32,000 nt of DNA from Candidatus Auribacterota bacterium. GTDB lineage: Bacteria; Auribacterota; UBA6266. Numbering within the stretch: position 1 is the first letter of the stretch; every line of letters begins with the position of its first letter. Where the stretch lies: NCBI GenBank assembly GCA_023136205.1, contig JAGLRQ010000063.1:1-32000 (forward strand), read 5' to 3'. Of the stretch, positions 1,781 to 31,193 are shown in pieces. Position numbers and translations under genes: made by a program. A model generated the notes under the pieces. That model did no database searches, had not been told where the DNA came from, and saw only the letters and a program-made list of their open reading frames with translations.

Positions 1781-1901
1781 GCAAAGCGAGCGGTCGTCCT
1801 TCGTCCAAGCGAGCAAAGCGAGCGATCGTCCCTCGTCCGAGCGAGCAAAGCGAGCGATCGTCCTTCGTCCAAGCGAGCAAAGCGAGCGGTCGTCCCTCGT
1901 C
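1781..1901. repeat. Family A tandem array A1 (about 3.8 units of 32 bp: GCAAAGCGAGCGRTCGTCCYTCGTCCRAGCGA)
   Basis: Read directly: head-to-tail units with a strict 32-bp period. The ORF-track N-terminal extension of the next gene (from 1741) is only a translation of this array. Confidence 0.9.
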
Positions 1902-1926: not shown

Positions 1927-3018
1927 ATGATAAAGTACACTTTCGCGATTTTACTTACGGCACTTAACTTGGCGCTTCCAACATCGGTTAATGCTGAATA
2001 TGTTATCGGCATAGATGATGTGCTGGAAATAAGCGTGCTTGAGTACGATAATCTCCACACTGTGGCGACAGTTCCGGCAGACGGATTAATATCTTTCCCG
2101 TATATCGGCAATGTCCAGGCTGAAGGCAAGACATTAGATGAGATAAAAGCAGAGATATCAAATAAGCTGTCTGACAGCTATATAAAATATCCGGTTGTTT
2201 CAATCTCTCTTATAAAGTCCCGGAGCAAGAACTTCTTTGTTTATGGCGCGGTCAGTAATCCTAATGCCTACCCGATATCCGATGATATGACTGTTTTAAA
2301 GGCGATATCCGTAGCCGGGGGGCTTACTCCGGATAGCCTCTATGGCAAGATAAATGTCAGGCGTCCGGGAAGAAAAGATGAGCCTGAATATCAAAGCATA
2401 AGCATAGATATAAGAAGTACCATGGAAGGGAAGAGCAAGACAGGTGATATGCTTCTTTTACCCGGAGACATAGTGGTTGTTGAACCGAGCGAAAAGTTTT
2501 TTGTTTACGGCGAAGTTGCCAGGCCCGGGCGGTATTTTCTGGAAGATAACATGACAGTTTTAAGAGCTATTTCAGTATCCGGAGGCCTTACGCCGGGCGG
2601 CCTTTACGGCAGGGTGAATGTCAGGCGTTTACAGAATGATAAACCGGGGTACGAAGATATAGAGATAGATATCAGAGGTACCGCGGGAGGGGCCGGCAAG
2701 ACAGGTGATATGCCTCTTCTGCCCGGAGACATAGTAGTTATTAAACCGAATGAAAAGTTTTTTGTCTATGGCGAAGTTGCCAGGCCCGGACGGTATTTAC
2801 TGGAAGATAACACAACAGTTTTAAAAGCCATATCCATGGCCGGTGGTTTTTCCAAATACGGCTCCTCAAGCCGGATCAAGGTTTTAAAACCAAAAAAAGA
2901 AGAAGCCGGTTACGAAACCATAAAAATAGACATCAAATCCGCCATGAACGGCAGCCCCGAATCAGACATGTTACTCCACCCGGAAGACATTGTAGTAGTA
3001 TCAGAGGGAATTTTTTAG
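1927..3018 (+). CDS. Polysaccharide export protein (Wza/EpsE-like: Poly_export domain plus three SLBB repeats)
   Basis: ATG at 1927 preceded by GGGAGA. Signal peptide MIKYTFAILLTALNLALPTSVNA, a Poly_export-like segment (YVIGIDDVLEISV...ISFPYIGNVQAEGKTLDEIK), then three copies of FFVYGxV..PG.Y......TVL.AIS.AGG... Confidence 0.85.
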   Translation: MIKYTFAILLTALNLALPTSVNAEYVIGIDDVLEISVLEYDNLHTVATVPADGLISFPYIGNVQAEGKTLDEIKAEISNKLSDSYIKYPVVSISLIKSRSKNFFVYGAVSNPNAYPISDDMTVLKAISVAGGLTPDSLYGKINVRRPGRKDEPEYQSISIDIRSTMEGKSKTGDMLLLPGDIVVVEPSEKFFVYGEVARPGRYFLEDNMTVLRAISVSGGLTPGGLYGRVNVRRLQNDKPGYEDIEIDIRGTAGGAGKTGDMPLLPGDIVVIKPNEKFFVYGEVARPGRYLLEDNTTVLKAISMAGGFSKYGSSSRIKVLKPKKEEAGYETIKIDIKSAMNGSPESDMLLHPEDIVVVSEGIF

Positions 3019-3032
3019 TGGGTGATAGTTTG

Positions 3033-3404
3033 ATGAGAAAAGTAAAAAGCGTAAGAGATTTAGAGGTTTATAGAATTGCTTTTGACGTAGCAATGGAGAT
3101 ATATAATCTTTCAAAGGATTTTCCGAAAGAAGAAAAATATTCATTAACTGATCAAATGCGCAGATCTTCCAGATCAATCTGTGCAAATCTTGCGGAAGGT
3201 TGGCGTAAACGAAAATATAAAAAAGTCTTTATAAATAAATTGTCAGATGCGGCACAAGAAGCAGCAGAAACACAGACCTGGTTGGAATTTACCTTAAAAT
3301 GTAACTATATTGATAAAAAGACATTTGAAAAATTAGATGAAAAATACGAACACATATTTGCAATGCTTATAACAATGGAGCGAAAAGCAGATATGTTCTG
3401 TTAA
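3033..3404 (+). CDS. Four-helix-bundle protein (23S rRNA intervening-sequence protein family)
   Basis: Family hallmarks: VRDLEVYRIAFDVAMEIYNLSKDFPKEEKYSLTDQMRRSSRSICANLAEGW. About 120 aa. ATG at 3033 is preferred to the GTG at 3018 that overlaps the upstream stop. Confidence 0.8.
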   Translation: MRKVKSVRDLEVYRIAFDVAMEIYNLSKDFPKEEKYSLTDQMRRSSRSICANLAEGWRKRKYKKVFINKLSDAAQEAAETQTWLEFTLKCNYIDKKTFEKLDEKYEHIFAMLITMERKADMFC

Positions 3405-3592
3405 GCGAGCAAAGCGAGCGGTCGTCCCTCGTCCAAACGAGCAAAGCGAGTAAACGTCCCTCGTCCGAGCGAATGAAATGAGTGGTCGTCCCTCGTCCAA
3501 GCGAGCAAAGCGAGTAAACGTCCCTCGTCCGAGCGAATGAAATGAGTGGTCGTCCCTCGTCCAAGCGAGCAAAGCGAGCGATCGTCCTTCGT
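3404..3592. repeat. Family A tandem array A2 (about 6 units of 32 bp, including an exact 64-bp tandem duplication 3441-3504 = 3505-3568)
   Basis: Read directly. The array begins at the last base of the four-helix-bundle stop codon (TAA 3402-3404) and ends about 20 nt before the next start codon. Confidence 0.9.
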
Positions 3593-3613: not shown

Positions 3614-5260
3614 ATGGATACTTATCCCAATTCGAGTGTAGACACCACCACCACATTCCGCGACTACCTGCGCGTGCTTTTCCGGCACAAAGCAGTAATC
3701 GCCATCACTTTTATCACTGTCATGGTAACTGTTTTCATCGGCCTGAAACTTAAAACACCGGTTTATGAGGCCCAGGTTAAAATGCTTATCTCAGCACAAA
3801 AACAGGTCGAAGCGCCCTACTACAGGGAGTTAGGTGGTTATGGCAAAGTTGAAATGGCCCTTACCCAGAGTGAGATTGTGAAGTCAAATCCTGTAATTGA
3901 GCGTAGTGTCAAAGCTCTTAGGCTATACGGTCGTCCGCTTGATTATGAAAAAAACTTTTGCTCTCCGCTTAAAAAGCGTTTGGTAGACTGGCGGACAAAA
4001 ACGCTTGAAGCCAAACTCGAAACTCTTCCCACACAACAAAAGCAAACTCTTCTATTTCGTAAAGCGGTAGAAGATTTAAAAGCAAGCACAGAAGTCGCGC
4101 CGATAAGAGATACTAACTTATTTACCATAAGCGTCAGTGATTTCAGCCCTGTTGGCTCAGCTATAACCGCTAATGTGGTAAGCCGTTCATATATTATATT
4201 TGACCTTGAACAGCAGCTTGCTGAGCTTCAGATAAAATATGGCGAAAAACATCTCGCGGTCAAACAGTTAAAGGACAATATTGAGAAGATGACCGCGAAC
4301 CTTAATGGCGAACCGATTTCTGCTATAGAAGCAATCGGCCCTGCGAGCGTTAAAATTATTGAGCAGGCGCAGGTTCCTATTAAGCCGACCGGAACCCCTA
4401 AACTTCTTACGCTTGTCCTTGCTTTTTTTATGAGTTGGTTTTTAGGCGTTATGCTTGCCTTCGGATTTGAGTATATGGATCATACTTTCAAATCGCCTCA
4501 GGACGTGGAAACATTCCTTAATCTTCCGCTTCTGGGCTCTATCCCGAAGAAAAAGGTTAAAGAAAAAAGATTAGTTCAGGATGCGAAGGTGATAACCCCT
4601 TATACCTCTTCTTATCAGACGATTTCAGACCAGATACAGTTGCTTATAAAAGAGAAGAACTTAAAATCTATTTTGATGACTTCTGCCTTAGAGCAGGAGG
4701 GAACTAGCACTATTATTGCTAATCTTGGCATTTGTTTAACTCACAAAGCAGGCTGTAAAGTGCTTATCATTGATGCCAATTTGAGGAATCCCTCTATGCA
4801 TACCGCTTTTAAAGTTTCTAATAATCAGGGGCTGAGTGATATTCTTGAGGGCAAGAGTTCTTTTGAAGAGGCTGTTAAAGCAGTAGATATTTATCCAATT
4901 CGTGATAATTCGAGTGCGGTTCGTGAAAATTCGTGCCTGAATGTTCTAACTGCCGGTTCTACCGGGCTTAATCCTATTACGCTTTTAGACTCTTCAAAAA
5001 TGGTTGATGTAATTAAAAAAGCCGGGAAAAAATATGAAATAATCCTGATTGACTGTACCAATTTGAGAAATTTCCGAGATGCCTCTGCAATTTCTTCACT
5101 TAACGACGGTATTGTTCTGGTAGTAAACGAAGGTAAAACCAGGCGCCAGGTAGTCAAATCAGCCTTAATACCCCTGGAGAAAAAGAAAGCCAACCTCATT
5201 GGTGTTATTTTGAATAACCGCACTTTTCCTATACCAAAAGGAATTTACAACCGTGTATAA
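3614..5260 (+). CDS. Polysaccharide co-polymerase (Wzz/GumC-like chain-length determinant) fused to a BY-kinase-like P-loop domain with a degenerate Walker A
   Basis: ATG at 3614 after AAAGAGAGG. Two TM segments flank a long coiled periplasmic region. The C-terminal domain aligns to the Wzc kinase core (VLIIDANLRNP, YEIILIDCTN, GVILNN), but Walker A reads EGTST rather than GK(S/T). Confidence 0.8.
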   Translation: MDTYPNSSVDTTTTFRDYLRVLFRHKAVIAITFITVMVTVFIGLKLKTPVYEAQVKMLISAQKQVEAPYYRELGGYGKVEMALTQSEIVKSNPVIERSVKALRLYGRPLDYEKNFCSPLKKRLVDWRTKTLEAKLETLPTQQKQTLLFRKAVEDLKASTEVAPIRDTNLFTISVSDFSPVGSAITANVVSRSYIIFDLEQQLAELQIKYGEKHLAVKQLKDNIEKMTANLNGEPISAIEAIGPASVKIIEQAQVPIKPTGTPKLLTLVLAFFMSWFLGVMLAFGFEYMDHTFKSPQDVETFLNLPLLGSIPKKKVKEKRLVQDAKVITPYTSSYQTISDQIQLLIKEKNLKSILMTSALEQEGTSTIIANLGICLTHKAGCKVLIIDANLRNPSMHTAFKVSNNQGLSDILEGKSSFEEAVKAVDIYPIRDNSSAVRENSCLNVLTAGSTGLNPITLLDSSKMVDVIKKAGKKYEIILIDCTNLRNFRDASAISSLNDGIVLVVNEGKTRRQVVKSALIPLEKKKANLIGVILNNRTFPIPKGIYNRV

Positions 5261-5282: not shown

Positions 5283-5479
5283 GCGTAGCCGTAACCTCCC
5301 CCGAGAGGACGATTCACGAGATACGGCTTCTAAGCTACTGCTTTTTTAATTTGTCCGAGCGAGTGAAACGAGCGGTCGTCCTACGTCCCAGCGAACAAAG
5401 TGAGCGATCGTCCTTCGTCTATCGTTTCTGGTGACTTGCAATTGGTGACTTTTTATCTTGGTGACTTGACAGTGTGGCC
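5283..5479. repeat. Composite junction module C1-A3-B1
   Basis: C1 (5283-5347): GCGTAGCC..CCTCCCCCGAGAGGACGA..CGAGATACGGCTTCTAAGCT. A3 (5353-5419): two family A units. B1 (5428-5479): CTGGTGACTTGCAATTGGTGACTTTTTATCTTGGTGACTTGACA. The same parts recur at 9877-10132 and 10896-11390. Confidence 0.8.
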
Positions 5480-5494
5480 ATTTCCGTATATAAT
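5466..5494 (+). promoter_or_regulatory. Sigma70-type promoter for the AbiEi/AbiEii/PLD operon
   Basis: TTGACA (5466-5471), a 17-nt spacer, then TATAAT (5489-5494), 30 nt upstream of the ATG at 5524. The -35 box is the end of the third TGGTGACTT repeat of module B1. Confidence 0.6.
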
Positions 5495-5523: not shown

Positions 5524-6162
5524 ATGGACTATGCAGAATTCAAAAAGAGGTTTTCGAAACTTCCGCTTATCGTCGGAAGAGACGCTGTCCAGCTTGAAAA
5601 AGCCGGGCAGGCGATGCGTAACCAGCTCAATCGCTGGCAGTCGAAGGGGCTTATTGTCAGGCTCAAAAAAGGCATCTATATGCTTAACAGGGACGACAGG
5701 AGGGTAGAACCAAGCAGAATCTTCCTTGCGAACCGGCTTTATGGCCCGTCATATGTCAGCTTAGAGTTTGTGTTAAATTTTTACGGGCTTATCCCTGAGC
5801 GCGCGGCTGATGTGACTTGTGTCACGACAAAAAAAACCGCGCGATTTATAAATGAATTCGGGACTTTTATCTACCAGCATATCAAGCCGGATGCCTTCAG
5901 GGGATTTAAGTCGGCGAAGGATGAGGCTGGTTTGCCGGTATTCATTGCCGAGCCGGAAAAAGCGGTTGTGGATTTTATCTATTTGAATTTATCAAAATTC
6001 GCGAAGCCGGAAAAAGAGCAGTTCGCGCAGTCTTTTCGGTTCCAGAATATGGAAAAATTAAGCGCGAAGAAGATTATGTTTTACGCGAGCCTTTTCAGTA
6101 ACCGGAAACTTCTCTCTGCCGCTAAGGAATTTTGCGTGTTTATTAAGGAAAACAAGAGATGA
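5524..6162 (+). CDS. abiEi: AbiEi-family antitoxin / wHTH transcriptional regulator (type IV TA)
   Basis: N-terminal wHTH pattern (...QLNRWQSKGLIVRLKKGIYML), about 210 aa. A 4-nt ATGA overlap links it to a downstream AbiEii-type gene. Confidence 0.75.
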   Translation: MDYAEFKKRFSKLPLIVGRDAVQLEKAGQAMRNQLNRWQSKGLIVRLKKGIYMLNRDDRRVEPSRIFLANRLYGPSYVSLEFVLNFYGLIPERAADVTCVTTKKTARFINEFGTFIYQHIKPDAFRGFKSAKDEAGLPVFIAEPEKAVVDFIYLNLSKFAKPEKEQFAQSFRFQNMEKLSAKKIMFYASLFSNRKLLSAAKEFCVFIKENKR

Positions 6163-6962
6163 TCGAAGTATTAAGACAGCAGTATAAAGATGAAATGTCC
6201 GCCGAGGATAAGGTCAACCGTGTCCGCGAGTTCCTCCAGATTATCGTGCTAAAGGCTCTGTACGAAAAGGATTATTTTGAGAAAGTCGCTTTTACCGGTG
6301 GAACGGCGCTCAGGGTGCTTTACGGCCTCAGGAGGTTTTCTGAGGATCTTGACTTTTCGCTTGTCTCCAGGAGCGGTTATGACTTTAAGCTGTTGAATGA
6401 GGAATTGCTCCGCGAGTTTAAGTTAAACGGGCTCCACGCCAATTCAAAACCAAAAGCCGAAAAAACTGTCCACAGCATGATGATCAAATTTCCGGGGCTG
6501 TTAAACGAATTAGGGCTTTCCGCTTTTAAAGAGCAGAACCTTTCCGTAAAATTTGAGGTAGACACAAATCCGCCAAAGGGAGGTAAGCTTGAGAATACGG
6601 TTGTCAACAAGGCGTTTATCCTGAATATTAAGCATTTTGATCTGTCGTCGCTCCTGGCGACGAAACTGCATGCGTGCTTTTTCAGGAAATATACAAAGGG
6701 CAGGGATTTTTATGACCTTCTCTGGTATGCGGGTAAGGGCATCAAACCGAATTTGCCGCTGTTTAATAATGCGATAGAACAAACGCAAGGCCGTTCGTCG
6801 GCCATCACAAAGGATAATTTGAAGGCATTTATCACGGATAGGATCGAAAAGGTTGATTTTGAGGCCGCGAAAAAAGACGTCGAGCGGTTTCTCGAGGACA
6901 AGAGCGAACTCAAGCTTTTTAAAAAAGAGGTATTTGAGGCCGCTGTTTCTGGAGTTTGCTAA
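6159..6962 (+). CDS. abiEii: AbiEii/AbiGii-family nucleotidyltransferase toxin (DUF1814)
   Basis: Motif FTGGTALRVLYGLRRFSEDLDF (GGTAL...R.S.D.DF) and a downstream KGRDFYDL motif. Confidence 0.8.
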   Translation: MIEVLRQQYKDEMSAEDKVNRVREFLQIIVLKALYEKDYFEKVAFTGGTALRVLYGLRRFSEDLDFSLVSRSGYDFKLLNEELLREFKLNGLHANSKPKAEKTVHSMMIKFPGLLNELGLSAFKEQNLSVKFEVDTNPPKGGKLENTVVNKAFILNIKHFDLSSLLATKLHACFFRKYTKGRDFYDLLWYAGKGIKPNLPLFNNAIEQTQGRSSAITKDNLKAFITDRIEKVDFEAAKKDVERFLEDKSELKLFKKEVFEAAVSGVC

Positions 6963-8140
6963 TAAGGGTGTCTTCCTTGTTTAAAAAATTATTTTTAACG
7001 TATATTATTTGTTTTTTATTTTCATCTTCTCCTCTTTTTGCCGATATTCTTTGCGGCAAAACATATCAGCAAACCCTTCATGAATATATAGCCCGGGCTA
7101 AAAGCTCAATTGTAGTCGCGATGTACTTCATTATTTTGGAGCCGGGAGGCAAAGGCCCAATCAATGAATTGGTTGATGATCTTGTAGATGCTGAAAAGCG
7201 CGGTGTTGATGTCAGGGTGATTTTGGAAGATTCAAAGTTTAAAGAAAATCGTCTTGCTTATCAAAAATTAAAAGAAAACGGTGTTAATGTATATTTTGAT
7301 ACTCCCGAACATCTTTTACATGTAAAGGGTGTTGTTGTTGATGACAGGTATGTCTTTATAGGCAGTGCAAACTGGTCAAGGGCGGCAATAGAAGATAATT
7401 ATGAAGTTACATATTTTGAGGATTCTTCTCGCGATGCTATTGCTTTTAAGCAGTATGTCGAGAAAATCCCGTTTCAGGATAAAGATATGTTTCTACCTTC
7501 ATTTGAAGGTGTGGTTATTTCTTCGGATTTCCTTCTTTTGCCTGAAACAGGCCGCAGTCTTCTTAAGAGCCGGGCTGTAAAGCAGTTAGATCTTTATTTG
7601 TTGTTACGCAAGATACAGTATGAGAACGGAGAGGTTAGTTTTAGTGTTGATTATGATGTTTTGGCTAAAGCAATGGGTTATACCGTTCGCGGTAAGTTAG
7701 GTAAATACCGTAATCAGCATCATTACTTCTACGAAAGGATACATCGCTCATTAGCTCGTCTCAGGCGTTATGGCCTTATTGATTATAAAAAAGGGGTAGT
7801 TTCCTTAAATCTTAAAGATAATCTCTCTATAGTAATTCCCTTTGAATACTGGGATTATCCCGGGAAGCTCTCTATGCGGGCTAAGTATATGTATTTGATT
7901 TGTCTGTACGAAGCCGGCCGTTCCAGCCGGTATCCCTGCTGGTTTCGCAGCCAGAAGGATATGGCAAAACTTTATGGTATAAGTGATACTACCATTTCTT
8001 TAGGCCTTCTGGAGCTTGAGGAGAAGGGTATAATCGAGGTTTTGAGGGACAGGCCAACTCCCCCCGACTTTTCCAACAGGAAAGCCAATGTATATAAAAT
8101 GCTCGGTTTGCCTCAAAAAACAACTGATGTCCCCATTTAA
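6956..8140 (+). CDS. Secreted or membrane-anchored PLD-family (single HKD, Nuc-like) protein with two C-terminal winged-helix domains
   Basis: HKD motif HVKGVVVDDRYVFIGSANWS (7329-7388). N-terminal hydrophobic leader FKKLFLTYIICFLFSSSPLFA. The C-terminal half has two Rep/DnaD-like wH units (LDLYLLLRKIQ...LARLRRYGLI and KYMYLICLYEA...MAKLYGISDTTISLGLLELEEKGII). There is no ATG start; TTG at 6956 or TTG at 6977 after AAGGG. Confidence 0.65.
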   Translation: MLIRVSSLFKKLFLTYIICFLFSSSPLFADILCGKTYQQTLHEYIARAKSSIVVAMYFIILEPGGKGPINELVDDLVDAEKRGVDVRVILEDSKFKENRLAYQKLKENGVNVYFDTPEHLLHVKGVVVDDRYVFIGSANWSRAAIEDNYEVTYFEDSSRDAIAFKQYVEKIPFQDKDMFLPSFEGVVISSDFLLLPETGRSLLKSRAVKQLDLYLLLRKIQYENGEVSFSVDYDVLAKAMGYTVRGKLGKYRNQHHYFYERIHRSLARLRRYGLIDYKKGVVSLNLKDNLSIVIPFEYWDYPGKLSMRAKYMYLICLYEAGRSSRYPCWFRSQKDMAKLYGISDTTISLGLLELEEKGIIEVLRDRPTPPDFSNRKANVYKMLGLPQKTTDVPI

Positions 8141-8277
8141 CTCGTCCCCACGTCCCACGTCCAAGCGAGTGCAACGAGCGATCGTCCCACGTCCTTCGTC
8201 CCTCGCGTCCCACGTCCAAGCGAGTGAAACGAGCGCTCGTCCCTCGTCCCCACGTCCCACGTCTTTCCGTCCCTCGT
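8141..8277. repeat. Family A array A4 (heptad-expanded variant)
   Basis: Starts 1 nt after the PLD stop codon: CTCGTCC CCACGTCC CACGTCC AAGCGAGTGCAACGAGCGAT CGTCC CACGTCC TTCGTCC ..., in the same orientation as A1-A3. Confidence 0.85.
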
Positions 8278-8305
8278 TTCTGTGGTCTAACTCATTTTTT
8301 ATGTA

Positions 8306-8334
8306 TTGCAATTTAGTTATAACTAAGTTATACT
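8306..8334 (+). promoter_or_regulatory. Sigma70-type promoter with a palindromic operator; predicts a leaderless transcript for the second AbiE pair
   Basis: TTGCAA (8306-8311), a 17-nt spacer, then TATACT (8329-8334). The ATG at 8341 lies only 6 nt after the -10 box, with no SD. The spacer contains the perfect 12-bp palindrome TAGTTATAACTA (8314-8325). Confidence 0.5.
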
Positions 8335-8340
8335 TCATAT

Positions 8341-9129
8341 ATGAATAAAGAAATTTACAGCATATTGCAAGTAAGGGAGCTGTTCCATCTTGAGTTCTTA
8401 CGCTGGCTAAGTCGTAAAATTAAGTCCGAATTCTATGCTCTCAAAGGGGGAACGAACCTGAGATTTTTCTTTAAAAGCTTCCGTTATTCAGAAGATATGG
8501 ATCTGGATGTGAATACGATTCCCGTAGAAAAGCTAAAAGACATTGTCATGGAAATCTTAAACGCCAGGTCATTTATAGACAATCTGAGGACACTTAATAT
8601 TGTCCAAATCATTCCGCCTAATATCGCAAAGGCCAAGCAGACGCAAACAACCCAGCGTTTCAAGATTCATCTTATTACATGTTCAGGGGAAGATCTTTTT
8701 ACTAAGGTTGAGTTTTCACGGCGAGGGAGGAGAGGCTCAGTTGCCGTTCATCCCATATCTGATACAATCCTGCGGTTATATAAGCTGGCGCCGCTGGTGG
8801 TTCCGCATTATGACATTCATTCCGCGGTGTCACAAAAGATCGATGCCCTTGCCGCCCGCGCGGTGACCCAGCCCCGCGATATTTTTGACCTATTTATATT
8901 AAGTTCTCAATATGATGCTCCGGAAGGTAAGCAAACTAAGTATACAGCTCAAATAGCCAAGGCTCACGAAAACATATTCACAATCTCGTTTGAACAATTT
9001 CGAGACACGGTTGTTTCATATCTGTCAGCTGAAGATCAAGCGGCCTATGGCAATCCTCCTATGTGGGATGAAATAAAATTGAAAACAGCGCAATTTTTAG
9101 AAGAAATAAGGGACTGCAAACATGTCTAG
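8341..9129 (+). CDS. abiEii: AbiEii-family nucleotidyltransferase toxin (second copy, divergent)
   Basis: LKGGTNLRFFFKSFRYSEDMDLDV motif and a later PRDIFDL motif. Confidence 0.75.
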   Translation: MNKEIYSILQVRELFHLEFLRWLSRKIKSEFYALKGGTNLRFFFKSFRYSEDMDLDVNTIPVEKLKDIVMEILNARSFIDNLRTLNIVQIIPPNIAKAKQTQTTQRFKIHLITCSGEDLFTKVEFSRRGRRGSVAVHPISDTILRLYKLAPLVVPHYDIHSAVSQKIDALAARAVTQPRDIFDLFILSSQYDAPEGKQTKYTAQIAKAHENIFTISFEQFRDTVVSYLSAEDQAAYGNPPMWDEIKLKTAQFLEEIRDCKHV

Positions 9130-9730
9130 ACAGAATATATTGGTTTATATAAAACAGTTAAACCGCCCGGTTTTTACGACGAGTGAAGTTATGGCCTTGT
9201 CCGGGAAATCACCGTCCACCATCACGCAATCTCTGAATTATCTGCAAAAACAGGGATTGCTTATCAAAGTTCAGCGGGGAATATGGGCCGAGGCCGACAG
9301 CCGGATTAGCCCGTACAGCATCATCCCTTTTTTAACGCCTCGGCACCGGGCTTATGTTTCATTTGTCAGTGCTTTGCATCTGCATGGGATGATTGAACAG
9401 ATTCCTCAGGTGATTACCCTGGCCTCAACGTCTCATACCAGGACCGTTTATACAAAAATGGGGACGTTTGCAATCCATCAGATAGCGCCGCAATTCTTTA
9501 AGGGGTTTGATTGGTATCACGGGGATGGGAATTTTCTGATTGCCCAACCGGAAAAGGCCCTGGTGGACAGCCTATATCTCTCAGCGCACAAAAAAAAGCA
9601 ATTCGGCTTTTTCCCGGAAATGTCCTTTCCAAAGTCGTTTAGCTTCGCCAGAGCACGGAAGTGGGTGAAATGTATTTCCATTCCGAGTGTGAGGCTATAT
9701 GTTGAGAAAAAGTTAATTGAGTTAAGTTAG
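9122..9730 (+). CDS. abiEi: AbiEi-family antitoxin / wHTH regulator (second copy, downstream of its toxin)
   Basis: N-terminal wHTH (FTTSEVMALSGKSPSTITQSLNYLQKQGLLIKVQRGIWA), about 200 aa, with an 8-nt overlap onto the upstream AbiEii gene. Confidence 0.7.
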   Translation: MSRQNILVYIKQLNRPVFTTSEVMALSGKSPSTITQSLNYLQKQGLLIKVQRGIWAEADSRISPYSIIPFLTPRHRAYVSFVSALHLHGMIEQIPQVITLASTSHTRTVYTKMGTFAIHQIAPQFFKGFDWYHGDGNFLIAQPEKALVDSLYLSAHKKKQFGFFPEMSFPKSFSFARARKWVKCISIPSVRLYVEKKLIELS

Positions 9731-9876
9731 CCCGCGAACAAGGGTAAAGCCTGATTGTAGATACTGCCGCTCCATGGATAAATCTGCGGCTTACCCACAG
9801 AGCTTGGATAACCCTTTGGGTTAACCACACTATCCACAATTCTACTACCACTATTTTTTGCTTTCTTCTTCTTAAC

Positions 9877-10132
9877 GAGATAGTTCGAAGCGAAGCGTAG
9901 CCTCCCCCGAGGGGACGAGATACTAACAACGAGATACGGCTTCTAAGCTTTTTGTTTTTTTTGCTTCTAACGAGATACGATTCACGAGCTACGAGATACG
10001 GCTCTTAAACGAGATACGGCTTTTAGGATACTGTTTTTAATTCGTCCAAGCGAGTAAAACGAGCAATCGTCCCACGTCTTCCCGTCCCACGTCCCAGCGA
10101 GTGAAACGAGCGGCCGTCCTTCGTCCCTCGTC
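9877..10132. repeat. Composite junction module C2-A5
   Basis: C2 (9877-10040): GCGTAGCCTCCCCCGAGGGGACGAGATAC, then four ACGAGATACGGCTYYTAR units. A5 (10041-10132): family A units in the same orientation as the others. Confidence 0.8.
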
Positions 10133-10259
10133 TCTTCCCAACACCTATCTTTCCTATAGACTATAAGCTCATAAATATGCTTTAATTTCTCTCAGTTTAC
10201 TATATACTACAACGAAGGTATATCGTCTTATTCTATGTGTAAAATTGAGGAGGTGTCAA

Positions 10260-10553
10260 ATGAGAAATAAATCAATATATGTTCAATTGAAAGATGCTAA
10301 GTTTAAGAGTTTGCTTGGACTTTACAAAGTCGACAGAATAGCCATTTTTGGCTCGTATGCTAAAAGTAAACAGCGGCGAAAGAGTGATATTGACTTCTTA
10401 GTCGAATTTAAAAAAGGAGCAGATCTTTTAGACCAGGTAGGATTAAAGCTCGATTTAGAAAAGTTGTTGTCTAAAAAGGTTGATGTTGTAACACCTAAAT
10501 CTTTGAGTAAATATATTAAAAAGAAAGTAATAAAAGAGGCGGTGTATTTATGA
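10260..10553 (+). CDS. mntA: MNT-type nucleotidyltransferase antitoxin
   Basis: ATG at 10260 after GAGGAGG. Motif IFGSYAKSKQRRKSDIDFLVEF (GS...SDxD). ATGA overlap with the downstream HEPN gene. Confidence 0.8.
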   Translation: MRNKSIYVQLKDAKFKSLLGLYKVDRIAIFGSYAKSKQRRKSDIDFLVEFKKGADLLDQVGLKLDLEKLLSKKVDVVTPKSLSKYIKKKVIKEAVYL

Positions 10554-10891
10554 GTAAAGATTATAAGGTATATTTACATCATATTCTTGATGCAATTAAA
10601 ACTATAGAGAAATACATCAAAGGACTCAGTGAAAATGACTTTTATAAAAATAAGCTTATTCAAGATGGGGTGATCAGAAATCTTGAAATAATAGGAGAAG
10701 CTGCTAAAAATGTGCCTAAAGAGATACAGAATGAATATTCCCACATTGAGTGGAAGGCAATATCAGGCATGAGGGATGTTCTTATTCATGATTATTTTGG
10801 TGTTGATCTGGAACGAGTTTGGGGAGTTTTGGTAAATAGAATTTCACAATTAAAAAAAGATATATCAGGGATTATTAAAAATAAGAGTTAG
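10550..10891 (+). CDS. hepT: HepT (DUF86/HEPN) toxin
   Basis: HEPN Rx4-6H motif (MRDVLIHDY) plus RNLEIIGEAAKN. About 113 aa, paired with MNT. Confidence 0.8.
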   Translation: MSKDYKVYLHHILDAIKTIEKYIKGLSENDFYKNKLIQDGVIRNLEIIGEAAKNVPKEIQNEYSHIEWKAISGMRDVLIHDYFGVDLERVWGVLVNRISQLKKDISGIIKNKS

Positions 10892-10895
10892 ATTT

Positions 10896-11219
10896 AAACG
10901 AGATACTGCTTTTTACTCTTTTTCTATCTGGTGACGTGGTGACTTGCAACTGATGACTTTTTATCTTGGCAACTATTTCTATCTTTTAAACTGGTGACCT
11001 GGCAACTTTTCCACCTTGCAACTGTGGACTAATTTATTCGTCCCACATCCGAGCGAGTGAAACGAGCGCTCGTCCTTCGTCCCCACGTCCCACGTCCAAG
11101 CGAGTGAAACGAGCGGTCGTCCTTCCATCCCTCACGTCCCACGTCCAAGCGAGTAAAACGAGCGATCGTCCTTACGTCCCACGTCCTTCCGTCCATCACG
11201 TCCCACGTCCTCCCGTCCC
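10896..11219. repeat. Composite junction module C3-B2-A6
   Basis: C3 fragment AAACGAGATACTGC (10896-10909). B2 (10921-11030) carries the core GGTGACTTGCAACTGATGACTTTTTATCTTGG. A6 (11038-11219) is the longest heptad-expanded family A array. Confidence 0.85.
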
Positions 11220-11312
11220 TTGACTTTCGCCGATAAATATGGTCTAATTTCCCTTTGATTATTTACGAGATAGTGTCTTAAAGTGGTAAATAAATAGGCC
11301 GTGGCTCTATTT

Positions 11313-11390
11313 ATTCTATCTGGTGCCTTGGTGACTGGTGACGTGGTAACTGTTCTATCTTGTGACGTGGTGACTTGCAACTGGTGACTT
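11313..11390. repeat. Family B module B3
   Basis: TTCTATCTGGTGCCTTGGTGACTGGTGACGTGGTAACTGTTCTATCTTGTGACGTGGTGACTTGCAACTGGTGACTT. The 22-nt core GGTGACTTGCAAYTGRTGACTT is shared with B1 and B2. Confidence 0.8.
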
Positions 11391-11445: not shown

Positions 11446-12462
11446 ATGTTCTCAATACTACTACTACCCCTATTCGCGGCGATGTTCCTGGCCATTAACA
11501 TGGGCGGGAGCGGGACAGCTCCGGCTTTTTCTTCCGCCTATGGAGCGAACCTAATCCGTAAAGATTTGATCCCCGGATTATTCGGAGCTTTTGTTCTATT
11601 AGGTGCAATCATGGCCGGTAAAGAAGTTACCTTAACAATTGGAAAGGGGATTTTGCCGGATAGTTCAATGACTTTAACTTTGACCACTATTATATTGCTG
11701 TCCATTGCCTTATCAATGCTATTCGCGAACATACTAAGAGTTCCTCAGTCAACAAGCCAGTCAACGGTATTTGCTTTAGTCGCGGTTGCTGTATACCAAA
11801 ACAATTTACAAACTAAAAAATTGCTCTTTGAAATTATCCCTGCCTGGTTTATACTTCCAATTATTTCTTTTTTTCTGACTTTAATCCTGGGCAAATATAT
11901 CTATCGTCCGCTAAAGAAGAAAAAGCTGATAAATTTCAAACAACTAAAGGTACATCCGGCATTGCGCCTGGGCGTAATTTTTTCATCCTGTTACGTAGCG
12001 TTTTCTATCGGTGCCAATAACGTTGCTAATGCCTCCGGCCCGATTCACAGCCTGCTGGTTAACCAGTTAAATATTCAAGATAGCGAAACTAATTATTTGA
12101 TATGTATGATAGTCTCGACTTTAATCATCGCGCCCTGTTTTGCTCTGGGCAGTTCAATATTCGGCTCCCGCATCCTTAAAACAACCGGAAAAGAAATAAT
12201 CGAATTTGGGCCTATAGGCGCCTTAGCCATCTCTCTTGTAACCGGAAGCTTATTACTCCTGGCTTCAGTTACTCGAGGAATTCCAACTGCTCTTGCTCAG
12301 CTTAATGTAGGGGCAATAATTGGCCTGGGCGCGTATAAAGTCGGTATAAAAGAAATAATGACCCGAACATCGGTGAAGAAAATTTTTATGGTCTGGGTTA
12401 TATCGCCGGCTATCTCGTTTTGTATAGCATTGTTGTTGGCGTTTTTGATGGTCAAGAAATAA
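11446..12462 (+). CDS. PiT-family (PHO4) inorganic anion permease, phosphate or possibly sulfate
   Basis: ATG at 11446 after AAAGAGG. Polytopic membrane protein. The second-half signature [13 protein letters not shown] is present; the first-half signature is divergent ([17 protein letters not shown]). Confidence 0.7.
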
Positions 12463-12494: not shown

Positions 12495-13532
<1,038 letters not shown>

Positions 13533-13535
13533 TAC

Positions 13536-13621
13536 GGTAATCGTCAATCGGTGACGGCTAAAAAGACGTAACCGAAAAACGATAACCGATACGGGCATCG
13601 TAACCGAAAAACGATAAACGA
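13536..13621. repeat. Left direct repeat of the four-helix-bundle cassette (family D; a 32-nt-period array continues to 13653)
   Basis: GGTAATCGTCAATCGGTGACGGCTAAAAAGACGTAACCGAAAAACGATAACCGATACGGGCATCGTAACCGAAAAACGATAAACGA. CGTAACCG recurs at 13567, 13599 and 13631. Confidence 0.9.
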
Positions 13622-13653
13622 TACGGGTTGCGTAACCGAAAGACGAATAAATA

Positions 13654-14043
13654 GTGGAAAAAAAGATCACAAGTTTCAGAGACTTAGATGTTTATCAAGG
13701 AACTTATGCTTCAATGTTAAAAGTAATGAAGGAAATCGTTCCAAAGTTACCGGAACGTGAGAAATATGATTTAAAAGATCAGCTTAGTAGATCAAGTAAA
13801 TCCATTCCAAGGCTAATAGCTGAAGGATATGCAAAGAAACATCAAAAAGCAGGTTTTCAAAAATATATTGATGATGCAATGGCTGAATGTAATGAGACTG
13901 TAGTGAGTCTTTGTCAATCAAGAGATATTTATCCTGAAAATGTTGATATTAATTTGTGTGAAGAGTTAATAGATGATTACGATAAAGCTGGCCGTCAATT
14001 ATACAAGCTAGGTCAGGCATGGAATACATTTAAGAAAAGGTAA
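13654..14043 (+). CDS. Four-helix-bundle protein (23S rRNA intervening-sequence protein family), second divergent copy
   Basis: GTG start. FRDLDVYQGTYASMLKVMKEIVPKLPEREKYDLKDQLSRSSKSIPRLIAEGY matches the family pattern. Confidence 0.75.
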   Translation: MEKKITSFRDLDVYQGTYASMLKVMKEIVPKLPEREKYDLKDQLSRSSKSIPRLIAEGYAKKHQKAGFQKYIDDAMAECNETVVSLCQSRDIYPENVDINLCEELIDDYDKAGRQLYKLGQAWNTFKKR

Positions 14044-14130
14044 TCGTCAATCGGTGACGGTGACGGCCAAATAGACGTAACCGAAAAACGATAACCGATA
14101 CGGGCATCGTAACCGAAAAACGATAAACGA
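14039..14130. repeat. Right direct repeat of the four-helix-bundle cassette (family D)
   Basis: Near-identical to 13536-13621, with an extra TGACGG hexamer. It starts 2 nt upstream of the cassette stop codon TAA (14041-14043), which lies within the repeat. CGTAACCG occurs at 14076 and 14108 (32-nt spacing). Confidence 0.9.
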
Positions 14131-14147
14131 AAAACCTAGGAGCTTAT

Positions 14148-15206
14148 ATGGAAAAAAATTCTAAAATATACATAGCCGGCCACGATGGCCTGGTCGGTTC
14201 CGCCCTTACAAGAAAATTAAAAGCATCTGGTTATCAGAATATAACTACAAGAACCCTTAAAGAGCTTGATCTTACACGACAGAAAGACGCCGAAGATTTT
14301 TTTGAGAAAGAAAAACCCGAATATGTATTCTTAGCCGCGGCTAAAGTAGGCGGCATACTCGCCAACAGCACCTATAAAGCGGAATTCATATACCAGAATA
14401 TAATGATTGCCGCGAATGTAATACATTCAAGCTATAAATTTGGTGTTAAAAAACTGCTTAATATGGGTTCATCCTGTATATATCCAAAATTAGCGCCGCA
14501 ACCGTTAAAAGAAGAATATCTTTTGACCGGAGAGTTAGAACCTACAAACGAACCTTATGCGATTGCCAAGATTTCAGCAATAAAACTGTGCGGATATTAT
14601 AATGAGCAATATGGAACAAATTTTATCTCCGTTATGCCCACTAACCAATATGGCCCAAATGATAATTTTAACCTGAAAACATCACATGTTTTACCCTCTA
14701 TGTTAAGGAAGTTTCACTTAGCAAAATTATTATCAGAAGGCAAGTATGATGATATACTCAGCGATTTAAATCTTCCCCCTGAATCTCAAATCTCAAATCT
14801 CAAATCCGTTGACAGTTTGCTTGCTGATGTTGGCATAGCTGCTCAATCTATTACTCTATGGGGAAGCGGGAGCCCCTACAGAGAATTTCTCTACGTTGAT
14901 GATACTGCAGAAGCATGTGTTTTTTTAATGCAAAAATATGACGCCAAAGAAATTGGCGAATTTGTGAACATTGGGTCAGGTAAGGATATTCAACTTAAAG
15001 AACTTGCTAATTTAATAAAACAAATTGTGGGATTTAAAGGTGAAATACAATGGGATACTGCAAAGCCCGATGGTACGCCGAAGAAGCTTTTGGATGTTGA
15101 GAGAATGAATAAATTGGGGTGGAAGGCAAAGGTTAGGTTGGAGGATGGGATTCGGATGGTGTATGAGGGTTACGTGACAAAAAGTACTGAACTCCGACGA
15201 AATTAA
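14148..15206 (+). CDS. fcl: GDP-L-fucose synthase (GDP-4-keto-6-deoxymannose 3,5-epimerase/4-reductase)
   Basis: KIYIAGHDGLVGSAL, GSSCIYPK, YAIAKIS and KPDGTPKKLLD. It carries an extra segment between HVLPSMLRKFHLAK and ITLWGSG. Confidence 0.85.
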   Translation: MEKNSKIYIAGHDGLVGSALTRKLKASGYQNITTRTLKELDLTRQKDAEDFFEKEKPEYVFLAAAKVGGILANSTYKAEFIYQNIMIAANVIHSSYKFGVKKLLNMGSSCIYPKLAPQPLKEEYLLTGELEPTNEPYAIAKISAIKLCGYYNEQYGTNFISVMPTNQYGPNDNFNLKTSHVLPSMLRKFHLAKLLSEGKYDDILSDLNLPPESQISNLKSVDSLLADVGIAAQSITLWGSGSPYREFLYVDDTAEACVFLMQKYDAKEIGEFVNIGSGKDIQLKELANLIKQIVGFKGEIQWDTAKPDGTPKKLLDVERMNKLGWKAKVRLEDGIRMVYEGYVTKSTELRRN

Positions 15207-15296
15207 AAAAATTAGGGAAATGACAGAAAATTTAGAAAAACAGTGTTATTCAAATGAAGATTGGTAACCATAACCTAAAATTAGCGAATATTTCTT

Positions 15297-16637
15297 ATGT
15301 CTATAATTAACTTTGTCAAAAAGAAACTTAACAATCTGATTAGTGACAAGAAATTTGAAGAGATTTTACACGGTGGAGCTTTGAGTCTAAGCGCAAAAGT
15401 TCTCGGAGTAACAATTGGAATATTTTCTAATATAATTGTTGCCAGATACTACGGCCCTGAAATAATGGGAATAGTCGCTATTTTAAATTCTTTTTTTGCA
15501 ATTGCCGTACTTTTTAGCTTGATGGGAATGAATGTATCGCTATTGAGATTGATACCCGAGTACATAGCTAAATTTTCATATTTTTCAGCGTATAATGTTT
15601 ATAAAAAAATCCTAAAAACTGCTGTTTTTTTATCGTTAATAGTTGCGGCATTGCTGTTTTTTTCTTCTGATTTTATAGCGTCTAATATCTTTAATAAAAG
15701 TCATTTATCTATTTTGTTTGCAGTTGCTGCTATTTTTTTAATCGGGAAAACTCTTGTGCAGATAAATACTAATACGATTAGAGCTTTAAAAAACATAAAA
15801 CTTTATGCTTTTGCTCAAATTTTACCAAACTTGGTGAATTTCTTTTTTTTGGCCCTGTTAACTTCCTTGTTTTACCAAAAATATAACCCGATATATATAC
15901 AATTCTTAATAATTATTGTTGGTACTTTGGCGACTGCGTATATGGTAAAAAAACTTTTCTGTTCGAAAATTGAAAACGGAAAACCGGCAGAAAAAATTTC
16001 TTACCATAAAATTTTCAGCATATCTTCCCCTATGTTTTTAACCGCAACAATGCATTTAGTGATTTCGCAAACCGATATAGTTATGCTGGGAATCATGAAA
16101 AGTGAAGCTGATGTGGGAGTTTATAGCGTTGCGGTTAAGCTTGCTTTATTAACAAGTGCTATTTTAATTGCCTTTAATACTATCATCGCGCCCAAGTTTT
16201 CTGAATTATATCATTCCGAAAAAATAGATGAATTAGCGCATGTTGCCAAAAAATCCGCGAAATTAATATTCTGGATAACTGCTCCAATTTTAATTGTTCT
16301 TATGGCCTTTGGCAAGGGGATATTAAGCGTATTTGGAGATAAGTTCGTAGTCGCATATTGGGCGTTATTTTTTTTAATAATAGGGCAATTTGTAAATTCA
16401 GCGGCTGGTTCTGTAGGATACTTGCTTAATATGACCGGCCATCAAATAGCATTTAGAAATATAGTTTTTGCCGCGGGAATTTTAAATATTATGTTAAATT
16501 ACTTTTTAATTCCTGTTTATGGAATATACGGAGCGGCTATTGCCAGTATGATTTGTATAAGTTTATGGAATATAGCTGCCTCGATTTATGTAAAAATAAA
16601 GTTTGGATTTAGGATAGCGTATGTGCCATTTTGTTGA
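15297..16637 (+). CDS. wzx: Wzx-type polysaccharide flippase (MOP superfamily)
   Basis: About 12 predicted TM segments, typical length (446 aa) and position in a Wzx/Wzy-type locus. Confidence 0.7.
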   Translation: MSIINFVKKKLNNLISDKKFEEILHGGALSLSAKVLGVTIGIFSNIIVARYYGPEIMGIVAILNSFFAIAVLFSLMGMNVSLLRLIPEYIAKFSYFSAYNVYKKILKTAVFLSLIVAALLFFSSDFIASNIFNKSHLSILFAVAAIFLIGKTLVQINTNTIRALKNIKLYAFAQILPNLVNFFFLALLTSLFYQKYNPIYIQFLIIIVGTLATAYMVKKLFCSKIENGKPAEKISYHKIFSISSPMFLTATMHLVISQTDIVMLGIMKSEADVGVYSVAVKLALLTSAILIAFNTIIAPKFSELYHSEKIDELAHVAKKSAKLIFWITAPILIVLMAFGKGILSVFGDKFVVAYWALFFLIIGQFVNSAAGSVGYLLNMTGHQIAFRNIVFAAGILNIMLNYFLIPVYGIYGAAIASMICISLWNIAASIYVKIKFGFRIAYVPFC

Positions 16638-16669
16638 AATAAGGCAGACAAAACCAGGAAATAGCTTAG

Positions 16670-17494
16670 ATGAATAAAGCATTTAATCTCTTGAAAACAG
16701 AAATTAAAAAAGTGACAGGACTTGGCACAGTTCCGGGCAGATATCTTACAATTTTTCCTGACGACGTCTTTCTTGTTTCCTATCCAAGATCGGGAAATAC
16801 ATGGACAATATTTTTGTTGGGAAATTACTTGTTTAATACGCAAATAAATTTTTATAACTATAACAAAGTTTTTCCCAGCATATACAAATTTAATGCTGCT
16901 CAGTTATCGCAAATGAAAAGGCCGCGTATAATAAAAAGTCATGAAGGATTAAATAAAAAATATCCGAAAGTGATTTATTTATTAAGAGACCCTAGAGATG
17001 TTTGTATTTCATATTATTTTTATCAGAAAAAAAATAAAGAAATAACTATTCCTCTTGAAACCTATGTCGAAAAATTTATCCATGGCACTAATTCTCCATA
17101 TGGAGAATGGAAAAAACATGTATATGGTTGGATAAATAATAGAAATAAGATTAAAAAAGGTTTTATGTTTTTTAGATATGAAGATTTAAAAAAGAATACA
17201 TCTAATGAATTGAAGAAAATGATTAAGTTTTTAGGGTATGAAATTGATGAAAAAAAAATAAATGATGCAGTAGTAAACTCAAGTTTTGACAGTATGAGAA
17301 GGTTGGAAACAAAGCAAGAAGAAGAGGTTAGTTTTCTAAAAAAATCAGATAAGGAGATAAAGTTTATAAGAAGTGGCAAGAGTGATTTTATGGAATATTT
17401 TAAGAATTTTGATACAAGAATAGTAGAAAAGTTTAAAACCGCTTTTGATGAGTCTTTATTAAAGTTGGGGTATGAAAATGATGCAACTTGGTAA
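16670..17494 (+). CDS. PAPS-dependent sulfotransferase
   Basis: 5'-PSB loop SYPRSGNTW and 3'-PB motif LLRDPRDVCISYY. Confidence 0.75.
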   Translation: MNKAFNLLKTEIKKVTGLGTVPGRYLTIFPDDVFLVSYPRSGNTWTIFLLGNYLFNTQINFYNYNKVFPSIYKFNAAQLSQMKRPRIIKSHEGLNKKYPKVIYLLRDPRDVCISYYFYQKKNKEITIPLETYVEKFIHGTNSPYGEWKKHVYGWINNRNKIKKGFMFFRYEDLKKNTSNELKKMIKFLGYEIDEKKINDAVVNSSFDSMRRLETKQEEEVSFLKKSDKEIKFIRSGKSDFMEYFKNFDTRIVEKFKTAFDESLLKLGYENDATW

Positions 17495-18281: not shown

Positions 18282-18303
18282 TTAACTTATCTGTGGAGAT
18301 AAA

Positions 18304-20615: not shown

Positions 20616-20640
20616 TTGGTTTGAAAGAAATGTATTGTAT

Positions 20641-21777: not shown

Positions 21778-21787
21778 GAGTAATGAT

Positions 21788-23808: not shown

Positions 23809-23811
23809 GAA

Positions 23812-25020: not shown

Positions 25021-25098
25021 ACGAATCTTTTTTTCCATCAATTGGCAAGTATTAATATTTGTGCTTGTTTTGTTTTTCTATGTAGGGGGGAATGTGAA

Positions 25099-26076: not shown

Positions 26077-26081
26077 AAATT

Positions 26082-30284: not shown

Positions 30285-30285
30285 T
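30229..30285. repeat. 57-bp direct repeat, copy 1 (the 3' end of the exosortase CDS including its stop)
   Basis: AGCCGCCGAATACACCGAAAGATATCGAGAAAAGAGTAAAAACTACAAATAAATAGT. It recurs at 31110-31166 with 3 substitutions. Confidence 0.9.
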
Positions 30286-30331
30286 GATAATAGGGACAGA
30301 TCAGATTTATTGGCGCGCAAAGATAATTTAT

Positions 30332-31166: not shown

Positions 31167-31193
31167 ATTAAATATTTTCAAAAAATATAATAA

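Follow-up and report, generated by a model that had tools for sequence, protein, structure and literature searches.

Repeat arrays beside two four-helix-bundle genes in an Auribacterota polysaccharide operon as probable arms of degenerate hairpin cassettes

Intervening sequences (IVSs) that carry an open reading frame (ORF) occur in the 23S rRNA of Leptospira and Coxiella burnetii, and their ORFs belong to PF05635/TIGR02436, which is among the most abundant small-protein families without known function. In the Coxiella study, the S23p ORF is described as lying between terminal inverted repeats whose 28-bp stem is cut by RNase III, a mobile-element origin of IVSs is credited to Ralph and McClelland, and the distribution of ORF-bearing IVSs is called patchy in a way that suggests horizontal transfer, as does that of the cassettes described below (PMC4990558). 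The origin of IVSs has been debated since the early 1990s, and if a gene enclosed in a hairpin is the normal state in operon spacers across phyla, the inserts in rRNA would be one particular form of a much larger element family. Here, we analyzed a 32,000-nt stretch of DNA, hereafter the window, from a Candidatus Auribacterota bacterium (contig JAGLRQ010000063.1, positions 1 to 32,000; G+C content, 37%), whose plus strand encodes a polysaccharide export and synthesis operon according to domain searches of its genes. The window also matches part of contig DAOWCX010000001.1 (assembly GCA_030639325.1), and its population is represented in several ZHAN22-2 metagenome assemblies. The operon holds two genes of the same family, four-helix-bundle (4HB) genes 1 and 2, the first placed between a Wza-like and a Wzz-like gene and the second between the genes for GDP-mannose dehydratase (GMD) and fucose synthase. 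Like the IVSs, relatives of these genes are small ORFs within terminal inverted repeats that form a long stem, with ORF-less versions; unlike the IVSs, they lie between protein genes of operons rather than in helix 25 or 45 of 23S rRNA, and their arms, usually arrays of 7-8-nt repeats, can be much longer, their stems being predicted only. The original prediction for this locus, that gene and repeats form a self-contained module analogous to the ORF-bearing IVSs, was borne out insofar as subfamily-specific repeats travel with the gene. We consider it probable that the arrays beside the two genes represent 3' arms, each from a different hairpin cassette with a 4HB gene, and that the window copies are degenerate. 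The gene-in-hairpin design itself is already known from the ORF-bearing 23S IVSs, and what appears to be new is the same design in protein-coding operons.

Both genes proved to be 4HB genes, as had been proposed. Gene 1 (3033-3404, plus strand, 123 aa, with an alternative GTG start at 3018 that overlaps the stop codon of the Wza-like gene) matched PF05635 with an E value of 8e-37 (126.1 bits; cut-off, 33.8) and TIGR02436 with an E value of 2.4e-33 (114.6 bits; cut-off, 24), and its solved relatives, aligned over nearly the full length, are PDB entries 2RLD (E 1.5e-11) and 2GSC (E 3.5e-9), each with five chains. Gene 2 (13654-14043, plus strand, 129 aa, GTG start) also exceeded both cut-offs (E 1.5e-17 and 64.1 bits for PF05635; E 1.4e-14 and 54.2 bits for TIGR02436). 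The family motif R-x3-S-x3-N-x2-E (GxxRxxxSxxxNxxE) described in PMC3936711 is complete in gene 1, with R, S, N, and E all in register (RRSSRSICANLAE), and partly kept in gene 2, where L replaces N (SRSSKSIPRLIAE). Array A2 (3403-3592, plus strand), composed of TCC-AAGCGAGCAAAGCGAGCGA-TCGTCC-CTCGTCC units, begins inside the TAA stop codon of gene 1 (3402-3404). Tandem Repeats Finder (TRF) reported this array at period 32 (5.9 copies, 73% match) and at period 64 (2.8 copies, 94% match, score 312); because the match is 94% at the longer period versus 73% at the shorter, the true unit is 64 nt, consisting of two diverged 32-mers, so the array of 32-nt units initially described is real but its unit is twice as long. 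In the assembly L007, the array was one 64-nt unit shorter, for which assembly collapse is a possible cause. Its sequence suggests that A2 is the expanded 3' arm of a gene-1 hairpin cassette, and with a gap of only 14 nt between gene 1 and the Wza stop codon, there is no 5' arm. Three open frames crossing the array on the minus strand were considered as genes and set aside as products of a stop-free repeat, being otherwise unsupported.

The TAA of gene 2 (14041-14043) lies within the first bases of a different repeat, the downstream D block (14040-14135, plus strand), which contains two exact copies of CGTAACCG (14076 and 14108) and the 3' core CGATACGGGC at 14096. The upstream D block (13537-13653, plus strand) comprises a 5'-arm remnant, GGTAATCGTCAATCGGTGACGG, followed by 3'-arm units of the form CGTAACCG...CGATACGGGCAT, with three copies of CGTAACCG (13567, 13599, and 13631), the 3' core at 13587 and 13619, and a fold z score of -3.5. 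Both stop codons and every CGTAACCG position given at the outset were exact, and the statement that the two arrays share no sequence also held. The picture of an array following each gene applied to gene 1; gene 2, by comparison, is flanked on both sides by copies that are 97% identical in direct orientation (13549-13621 versus 14058-14130), its flanks scoring 151.5 in direct and 42 in inverted alignment. Likewise, the 32-nt array reported after gene 2 amounts to two CGTAACCG copies 32 nt apart, a single interval, and TRF lists there just a period-14 array (score 45). On sequence grounds, the D block (CGTAACCGAAAAACGATAACCGATACGGGCATCGTAACCG) appears to be the conserved 3' arm of the gene-2 subfamily. 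Both copies align to a gene-less hairpin in a related population (L172), lacking 25-31 nt of its 5' arm, and gene 2 is accordingly enclosed by two copies of a gene-less hairpin that had been truncated beforehand, which suggests that arm copies were duplicated or recombined with each other.

The defining feature, which the original prediction had missed, is not a 3' array but two mutually complementary arms, one at either side of the gene, and it emerged from a survey of gene-1 relatives in GTDB genomes. A scan of one genome per species yielded 590 confirmed relatives, the best 80 of which (54-77% identity) were compared with control genes from the same loci. They came from Planctomycetota, Omnitrophota, Nitrospirota, Desulfobacterota, Proteobacteria, Margulisiibacteriota, Cyanobacteria, Bacteroidota, Chloroflexota, and other phyla, and such a spread of a 123-residue protein indicates horizontal transfer. 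Tandem repeats were found within 130 nt upstream of 36 of 77 relatives, compared with 38 of 319 control genes (p 1e-10), and within 100 nt past the stop codon of 22 of 78 relatives, compared with 40 of 343 control genes (p 6e-4), confirming the anticipated enrichment 3' of the family. When reverse-complemented, the downstream flank shared at least five 7-mers with the upstream flank in 63/75 relatives versus 61/218 controls, and inverted-flank alignment scores reached at least 30 in 60/75 versus 20/231 (odds ratio 42, p 7e-32), with a median aligned stem of about 37 Watson-Crick pairs. The mean flank duplex energy was -81.7 kcal/mol for the relatives and -58.3 kcal/mol for the controls (p 8e-13), and the purine fractions upstream and downstream were 0.65 and 0.46 versus 0.53 and 0.52. 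Co-orientation with the upstream neighbour was more frequent as well (64/71 relatives versus 207/272 control pairs, p 0.009). Within one locus, upstream and downstream repeats were reverse complements of each other, as in L076 (GAGGAGCAGAGG.../CCTCTGCGCCTC...), L081 (AGACAGGG/CCCTGTCT), and L067 (GGAGATGGGG/CCCCCTCTCC), and eleven more distant 4HB genes in the survey loci displayed the same layout with unrelated arm sequences. When the whole cassette of L081 was folded, the arms paired across the gene over 31 consecutive pairs (z -8.5), and in L095 they were paired in both the minimum free energy (MFE) and centroid structures. Array periods did not cluster near 32 as had been expected: that period was seen in only 4 of 75 cases, the base periods being 7 and 8 plus their multiples, and the link through period 32 is incidental.

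The arm sequences tie the window to these cassettes. In the 40 closest gene-1 relatives, GGACGA upstream and TCGTCC downstream each occurred 1.44 times per 150 nt, against 0.04 in the background and 0.05 on the wrong strand, and the rate dropped to about 0.2 for relatives with 54-66% identity, the gene-2 subfamily being at about 0. Units resembling those of A2 (TCC-[AG]AGCG...AGCGA-TCGTCC) follow the gene with period 32 in a Betaproteobacteria metagenome-assembled genome (MAG; L013), and in a Desulfobacterota MAG (L036) they lie downstream of the gene with their reverse complement upstream. Homologues of gene 1 at 75-83% identity number in the thousands, and almost all of the 8000 scored candidates matched it. 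Most gene-1 homologues were on contigs of about 1-2 kb, and the arms seem to break assemblies; many gene calls carried N-terminal extensions (DEGRKTKR) or C-terminal read-through (QANKVSDRPTS in P0004) that are translated arm repeats. In practical terms, the arms probably fragment metagenome assemblies and mislead gene callers.

Relatives of gene 2, collected in a metagenome scan (best 80 of 239 confirmed relatives, 65-79% identity), displayed the same organization with other arms. The 5' core GCCCGTATCG was present in 48/75 loci, some 42 nt ahead of the gene, and the 3' core CGATACGGGC in 44/75, at +8/+14 after the stop codon, each expected by chance in about 5%, and 35/75 loci had both. The stop codon often lay within ACGTAACC, with which the 3' arm begins, and the flanks were inverted in 49/74 loci versus the 20/231 controls. 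Inverted repeats predicted to form an IVS-like stem are present in most relatives of either gene and absent from both window copies. RNAalifold predicted a 16-pair stem from 20 gene-2 arm pairs. Recurrent A.A mismatches were noted at fixed positions of this stem (GGTAACGAAGCCCGTATCG against CGAAACGGGCATCGTAACC, in arms from L091-L152). About 20 gene-less hairpins, in which both cores are 54-64 nt apart, were detected in the gene-2 loci, and such hairpins, which have kept both arms but not the gene, are a common derivative of the cassette. In one locus (L101, 2700-3700), a gene-2-type cassette lies within a tandem series of four gene-less hairpins with a unit of about 120 nt, and the loop of this gene-less unit resembles an internal deletion of the ORF.

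Taken together, each subfamily has an arm sequence of its own that accompanies the gene from one phylum to another, GGACGA/TCGTCC with gene 1 and GCCCGTATCG/CGATACGGGC with gene 2, and because this specificity extends over many phyla, the gene and its arms behave as one horizontally moving, apparently selfish unit. An intact cassette would run from a 5' arm through a start codon, a gene of about 125 codons, and a stop codon to a complementary 3' arm. It would occupy a spacer whose neighbouring genes share one orientation, and its arms, mostly tandem repeats of 7-8 nt, would be rich in purines on the upstream side and in pyrimidines on the downstream side. By analogy with the rRNA inserts, the arms of intact cassettes may base-pair once transcribed, with the gene looped out of the operon mRNA and the stem serving as a substrate for RNase III. 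In the window, the 3' arm of gene 1 would have been expanded by unit duplication, with variable copy number, and the same arm family would have colonized five other spacers, while the position of gene 2 between two truncated hairpin copies is what recombination between arm copies would be expected to produce. The purine/pyrimidine asymmetry and the co-orientation fit a strand-specific role, but the arms may instead act at the DNA level, either as the inverted ends of a mobile element or as handles for recombination.

Several observations weigh against this reading. The inverted-flank score of gene 1 (17.5) is below the control median (21.5), the flank duplex energies of genes 1 and 2 (-44.0 and -54.5) are weaker than the control median (-58.0), and since the window copies have no matching 5' arm, an IVS-like stem cannot form there. 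The A arrays fold little better than their shuffles (z -1.7 and -1.9). In the relatives, arm mismatches of the G.U and A.C types are balanced (181:174 and 117:125), with no signature of plus-strand RNA; this equality leaves selection for pairing in mRNA without support, and the complementarity could reflect a DNA-level origin only. The gene-2 stem is nearly invariant, with compensatory change in 2 of 16 pairs and hence little covariation. The controls were called with a crude ORF rule, and the survey loci are mostly metagenome assemblies whose repeats may be misassembled. Among the window genes, domain searches detected no transposase, integrase, or reverse transcriptase, and no target-site duplication was defined, so that mobility rests on distribution. 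Finally, five of the six A-type arrays of the window adjoin no 4HB gene but lie beside unrelated ones.

The folding results bear on whether the window arrays act at present as IVS-like RNA processing sites. The excision of ORF-bearing IVSs by RNase III offers an analogy, the arrays are fixed in orientation relative to transcription, and no intrinsic terminators and no promoter-like or terminator-like sites of note were found inside them, so that they are probably transcribed through. However, gene 1 has no complementary partner arm, the arrays fold weakly, only the D blocks (z about -3.5) and the 8141-8340 spacer (z -3.6) standing out in the window, and at the Rfam gathering threshold no rRNA or other RNA family matched in the window and no family matched in 16 loci with intact cassettes. 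Present-day processing is, in our judgement, highly unlikely. Because no stem can form in the window, the arrays are most likely relics of cassette arms, at most substrates for slippage and recombination.

The wider distribution of A-type units raises the question of whether 4HB genes have anything to do with them. Units of this family were found in six spacers (1781-1901, 3403-3592, 5350-5434, 8142-8277, 10041-10140, and 11039-11220), all in the same orientation, with TCGTCC occurring 33 times and GGACGA 3 times on the plus strand of the window. Array A1 (1781-1901, plus strand), assigned to family D1/D3, is a solo array of 3.8 units of the 32-nt family (TRF period 32, 92% match) between the porin-like and Wza-like genes. 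The other copies occur in mixed contexts on the plus strand. In the composite spacer 5290-5451, two A-type units (5350-5434) are accompanied by a GGACGA/ACGAGATACGG segment rich in purines and by a segment of GGTGAC/TTGCAA; at 8142-8277, after the PLD-HTH gene, A-type units are mixed with CGTCCCA heptamers (TRF period 55, score 179; families D2 and D7); the spacer 9895-10140 has purine-rich ACGAGATACGG(CTTCT) repeats at 9895-10030 followed by A-type units at 10041-10140; and the composite spacer before PHO4 (10894-11390) consists of GGTGAC/TTGCAAC repeats (10922-11030 and 11314-11390) around A-type units (11039-11220). All window arrays were far beyond chance, with TRF scores up to 312, repeats covering 2.2% of the 556 kb of comparison loci. 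We also considered the mixed purine- and pyrimidine-rich spacers as gene-less hairpins of the gene-1 type, which folding did not support, the spacer 9860-10150 folding no better than its shuffles (z +0.7). As separate observations, the ACGAGATACGGCTTCT repeats (5290-5330 and 9895-10030) each follow CCTCCCCCGAG(A/G)GGACGA, and these segments, which hold two of the three plus-strand GGACGA of the window, lie upstream of A-type units in the same spacers and form no hairpin fold. A further repeat family, CTGGTGAC / TTGCAAC, is present in three places (5430-5470, 10922-11030, and 11314-11390) with no gene attached, and a similar sequence forms the purine-type 5' arm of a different 4HB cassette, that of L054 (GTGACGAGTGACAAG).

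These arrays could simply be generic, lineage-specific intergenic repeats that spread by themselves, their adjacency to 4HB genes being coincidental. The five spacers beside unrelated genes fit such an account, as do the variable copy number, the absence of the exact A-unit pattern GAGCGNTCGTCCNNCGTCCNAGCGA from 185,579 species-representative genomes (a collection that does not include the source genome), which marks it as lineage-restricted, and a comparison with L089, whose 4HB protein is 93% identical to that of gene 1 within the same porin-Wza-4HB-Wzz order. In this locus the porin-Wza spacer, which carries A1 in the window, has no array, so arrays spread independently of the gene. The same locus nevertheless conserves the array after the gene, where three A units are present and the stop codon is lost into the array; retention there but not between porin and Wza suggests that the gene-1 array is ancestral at its site and that the other copies are secondary. 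A-like units and TCGTCC also flank gene-1 relatives in other phyla, at 36 times the background and strand-specifically, the D block corresponds to the 3' arm that is conserved at a fixed position beside gene-2 subfamily members in dozens of metagenomes, and flank repeats are enriched over control genes. Coincidence is for these reasons quite improbable in our assessment. The original prediction had conceded that comparable arrays beside unrelated genes would speak against a connection, and this is half true of the window with its five other spacers, but the relatives change the picture in favour of the degenerate-cassette explanation.

Known intercistronic repeats provide a further point of comparison. 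The variable-number tandem repeats of the mycobacterial interspersed repetitive unit (MIRU) type consist of tandem units of tens of bases inside operons, which abut or overlap the upstream stop codon and vary in copy number between strains. Array A2 behaves similarly in that it starts in the stop codon of gene 1 and has one 64-nt unit fewer in L007, again with collapse as a possible cause, and three units in L089; it differs in having no sequence relationship to MIRU, and the window units derive from the arms of a gene-carrying cassette. The short tandemly repeated repetitive (STRR) sequences of cyanobacteria are heptamer or octamer tandem arrays in intergenic DNA, and cyanobacterial 4HB cassettes (L067, L085, and L088) carry heptamer or octamer arrays as arms. 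No link between STRR and 4HB genes was found in the open-access literature searched.

Comparison with related operons revealed that some breakpoints coincide with the cassettes. L172, from a related population, has the same gene order, with PHO4 and GMD each 91% identical to the window, but its 126-nt spacer between GMD and the fucose synthase gene lacks a 4HB gene and has one hairpin with both arms (MFE -41.8 kcal/mol, z -4.9). Across this hairpin (2870-3000), identity falls from 91% in PHO4 and GMD to 78% in fucose synthase. L090, whose 4HB protein is 98% identical, matches the window through Wza and nearly all of gene 1 and then switches within the last codons of the gene (800-880) to another C terminus, a different pyrimidine-rich array, and another downstream gene. 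The two mosaic junctions thus coincide with a 4HB 3' end or with arms. In L171, a more distant variant, the Wza, Wzz, dehydratase, and synthase genes abut without a 4HB gene or arrays. A close empty site was sought through fucose-synthase homologues, the nearest of which was only 78% identical. At its beginning (1-660), L172 also has a different 4HB gene (133 aa) in a complete cassette upstream of PHO4, where the window has arrays only; this gene is flanked by a perfect 20-nt inverted repeat (GAATATGCTTTGCGAAATA-type / TATTTCGCAAAGCATATTTC) and by an extended array of ATTTCAA.

The two breakpoints lend some support to a role of the arms as recombination handles, through which cassettes would be gained and lost by homologous recombination (Campbell-type or unequal), the arrays marking points of exchange in polysaccharide loci. 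The 97%-identical direct copies around gene 2 would be a product of integration through the arms or of unequal exchange between them, L172 has a single gene-less hairpin at the site of its identity switch, L090 diverges within the last codons of gene 1, and 12 of 75 gene-2 relatives have the 3' core upstream of the gene as well. Against this stand the small number of breakpoint cases, two, both on metagenome contigs, the fact that mosaic polysaccharide loci break at spacers anyway, and the arm complementarity and purine-rich 5' arms, which recombination leaves unexplained. As a principal account it is possible but rather doubtful, and it is compatible with, not exclusive of, the explanation by degenerate hairpin cassettes.

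Alternatively, the arrays might be where the 4HB protein docks. As a nucleic-acid binder of a basic, pentameric, Avd-like type, it would recognize the motif of its own arms, in RNA or in DNA, and might thereby regulate or mobilize the cassette. Avd, the accessory protein of diversity-generating retroelements (DGRs), binds nucleic acid and has a distantly related four-helix-bundle fold. Gene 1 resembled the Avd profiles below their cut-offs (NF033474, 27.1 bits against 80; PF22296 bAvd, 28 against 40), and sub-threshold similarity was seen for both window genes. The window itself is not a DGR, having no reverse transcriptase domain and no template/variable repeat pair and falling well short of the NF033474 cut-off. 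Arm motifs that are subfamily-specific and repeat in tandem at short periods are what a multimeric binder would need, and the five chains in 2RLD and 2GSC agree with this, but the binding is a prediction, simple linkage explains the co-variation of arm and protein, and gene-less hairpins persist without a local gene. The Coxiella study, moreover, reports no evidence that S23p is made in vivo (PMC4990558). We regard docking as unlikely, and the arrays as degenerate arms of hairpin cassettes continue to be the explanation we prefer.

Three other kinds of element resemble the cassettes in part. Gene-less hairpins that keep both arms, lose the gene, and outnumber or accompany the full copies are reminiscent of miniature inverted-repeat transposable elements (MITEs), from which the cassettes differ in that no transposase is known for the parent 4HB element and no target-site duplication is defined. 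Integron cassettes are likewise small, co-oriented, promoterless genes, toxin-antitoxin pairs included, with imperfect hairpin repeats between them, and gene 2 between two hairpin remnants invites the comparison; we rejected an integron, however, as the window has no integrase domain and the D block has no GTT and consequently no GTTRRRY core, and unlike attC sites, the arms of intact 4HB cassettes flank the gene rather than follow it. Clustered regularly interspaced short palindromic repeats (CRISPR) were also rejected, the units being arranged head to tail without spacers and no cas domains being found among the window genes by domain searches. The nearest remark in the literature is a report of 4HB genes between cas genes (PMC3936711). 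Inverted tandem-repeat arms around 4HB genes outside rRNA had no description in the open-access literature, which does not amount to proof of novelty.

More speculatively, and well short of being favoured, 4HB cassettes might constitute a hairpin-bounded, transposase-less mobile class of about 0.5-0.6 kb that moves between operon spacers and rRNA helices across phyla, with an Avd-like protein recognizing its own arms and with gene-less hairpins, solo arrays, and possibly cyanobacterial STRR-type repeats as decay products. If genes of this family do normally sit in hairpins within operon spacers across phyla, many unexplained intergenic tandem repeats and hairpins gain a source, and mapping of RNase III sites and binding of the arms by the protein become concrete experiments.

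The remaining genes of the window, identified by domain searches, place the cassettes within a long plus-strand operon. It begins with a RodZ-like protein and a beta-barrel porin, followed by the Wza-like exporter (1927-3018) and, beyond gene 1 and A2, the Wzz/kinase-like protein (3615-5260). Three toxin-antitoxin or defence modules (5524-10891) separate the latter from the PHO4-family phosphate transporter (11446-12462), which lies inside the polysaccharide locus and is 91% conserved in L172, and from GMD (ending at 13532, plus strand). The modules comprise AbiEi/AbiEii with a PLD-HTH protein, a second AbiEii/AbiEi pair in reversed order, and MNT/HepT; composite repeat spacers separate each of the three, and the whole segment is missing from the variant operon of L171. 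GDP-fucose synthase (14148-15206, plus strand) is followed, still on the plus strand, by genes for a flippase, sulfotransferases, glycosyltransferases, NeuB, and an exosortase, and the spacers from 14148 to 26897 are all short and array-free. A perfect sigma-70 consensus (TTGACA, 17 nt, TATAAT; 12/12) is located at 5466-5494, shortly before the first AbiEi gene and within the repeat-rich spacer that precedes it. After the second AbiEi gene, about 160 nt of non-repetitive, non-coding DNA (9731-9890) had neither an ORF call nor an Rfam match. Near the exosortase gene, a 62-nt direct repeat occurs at 30229-30290 and 31110-31171, 881 nt apart and 92% identical, both copies ending in ...AAATAAATAG.

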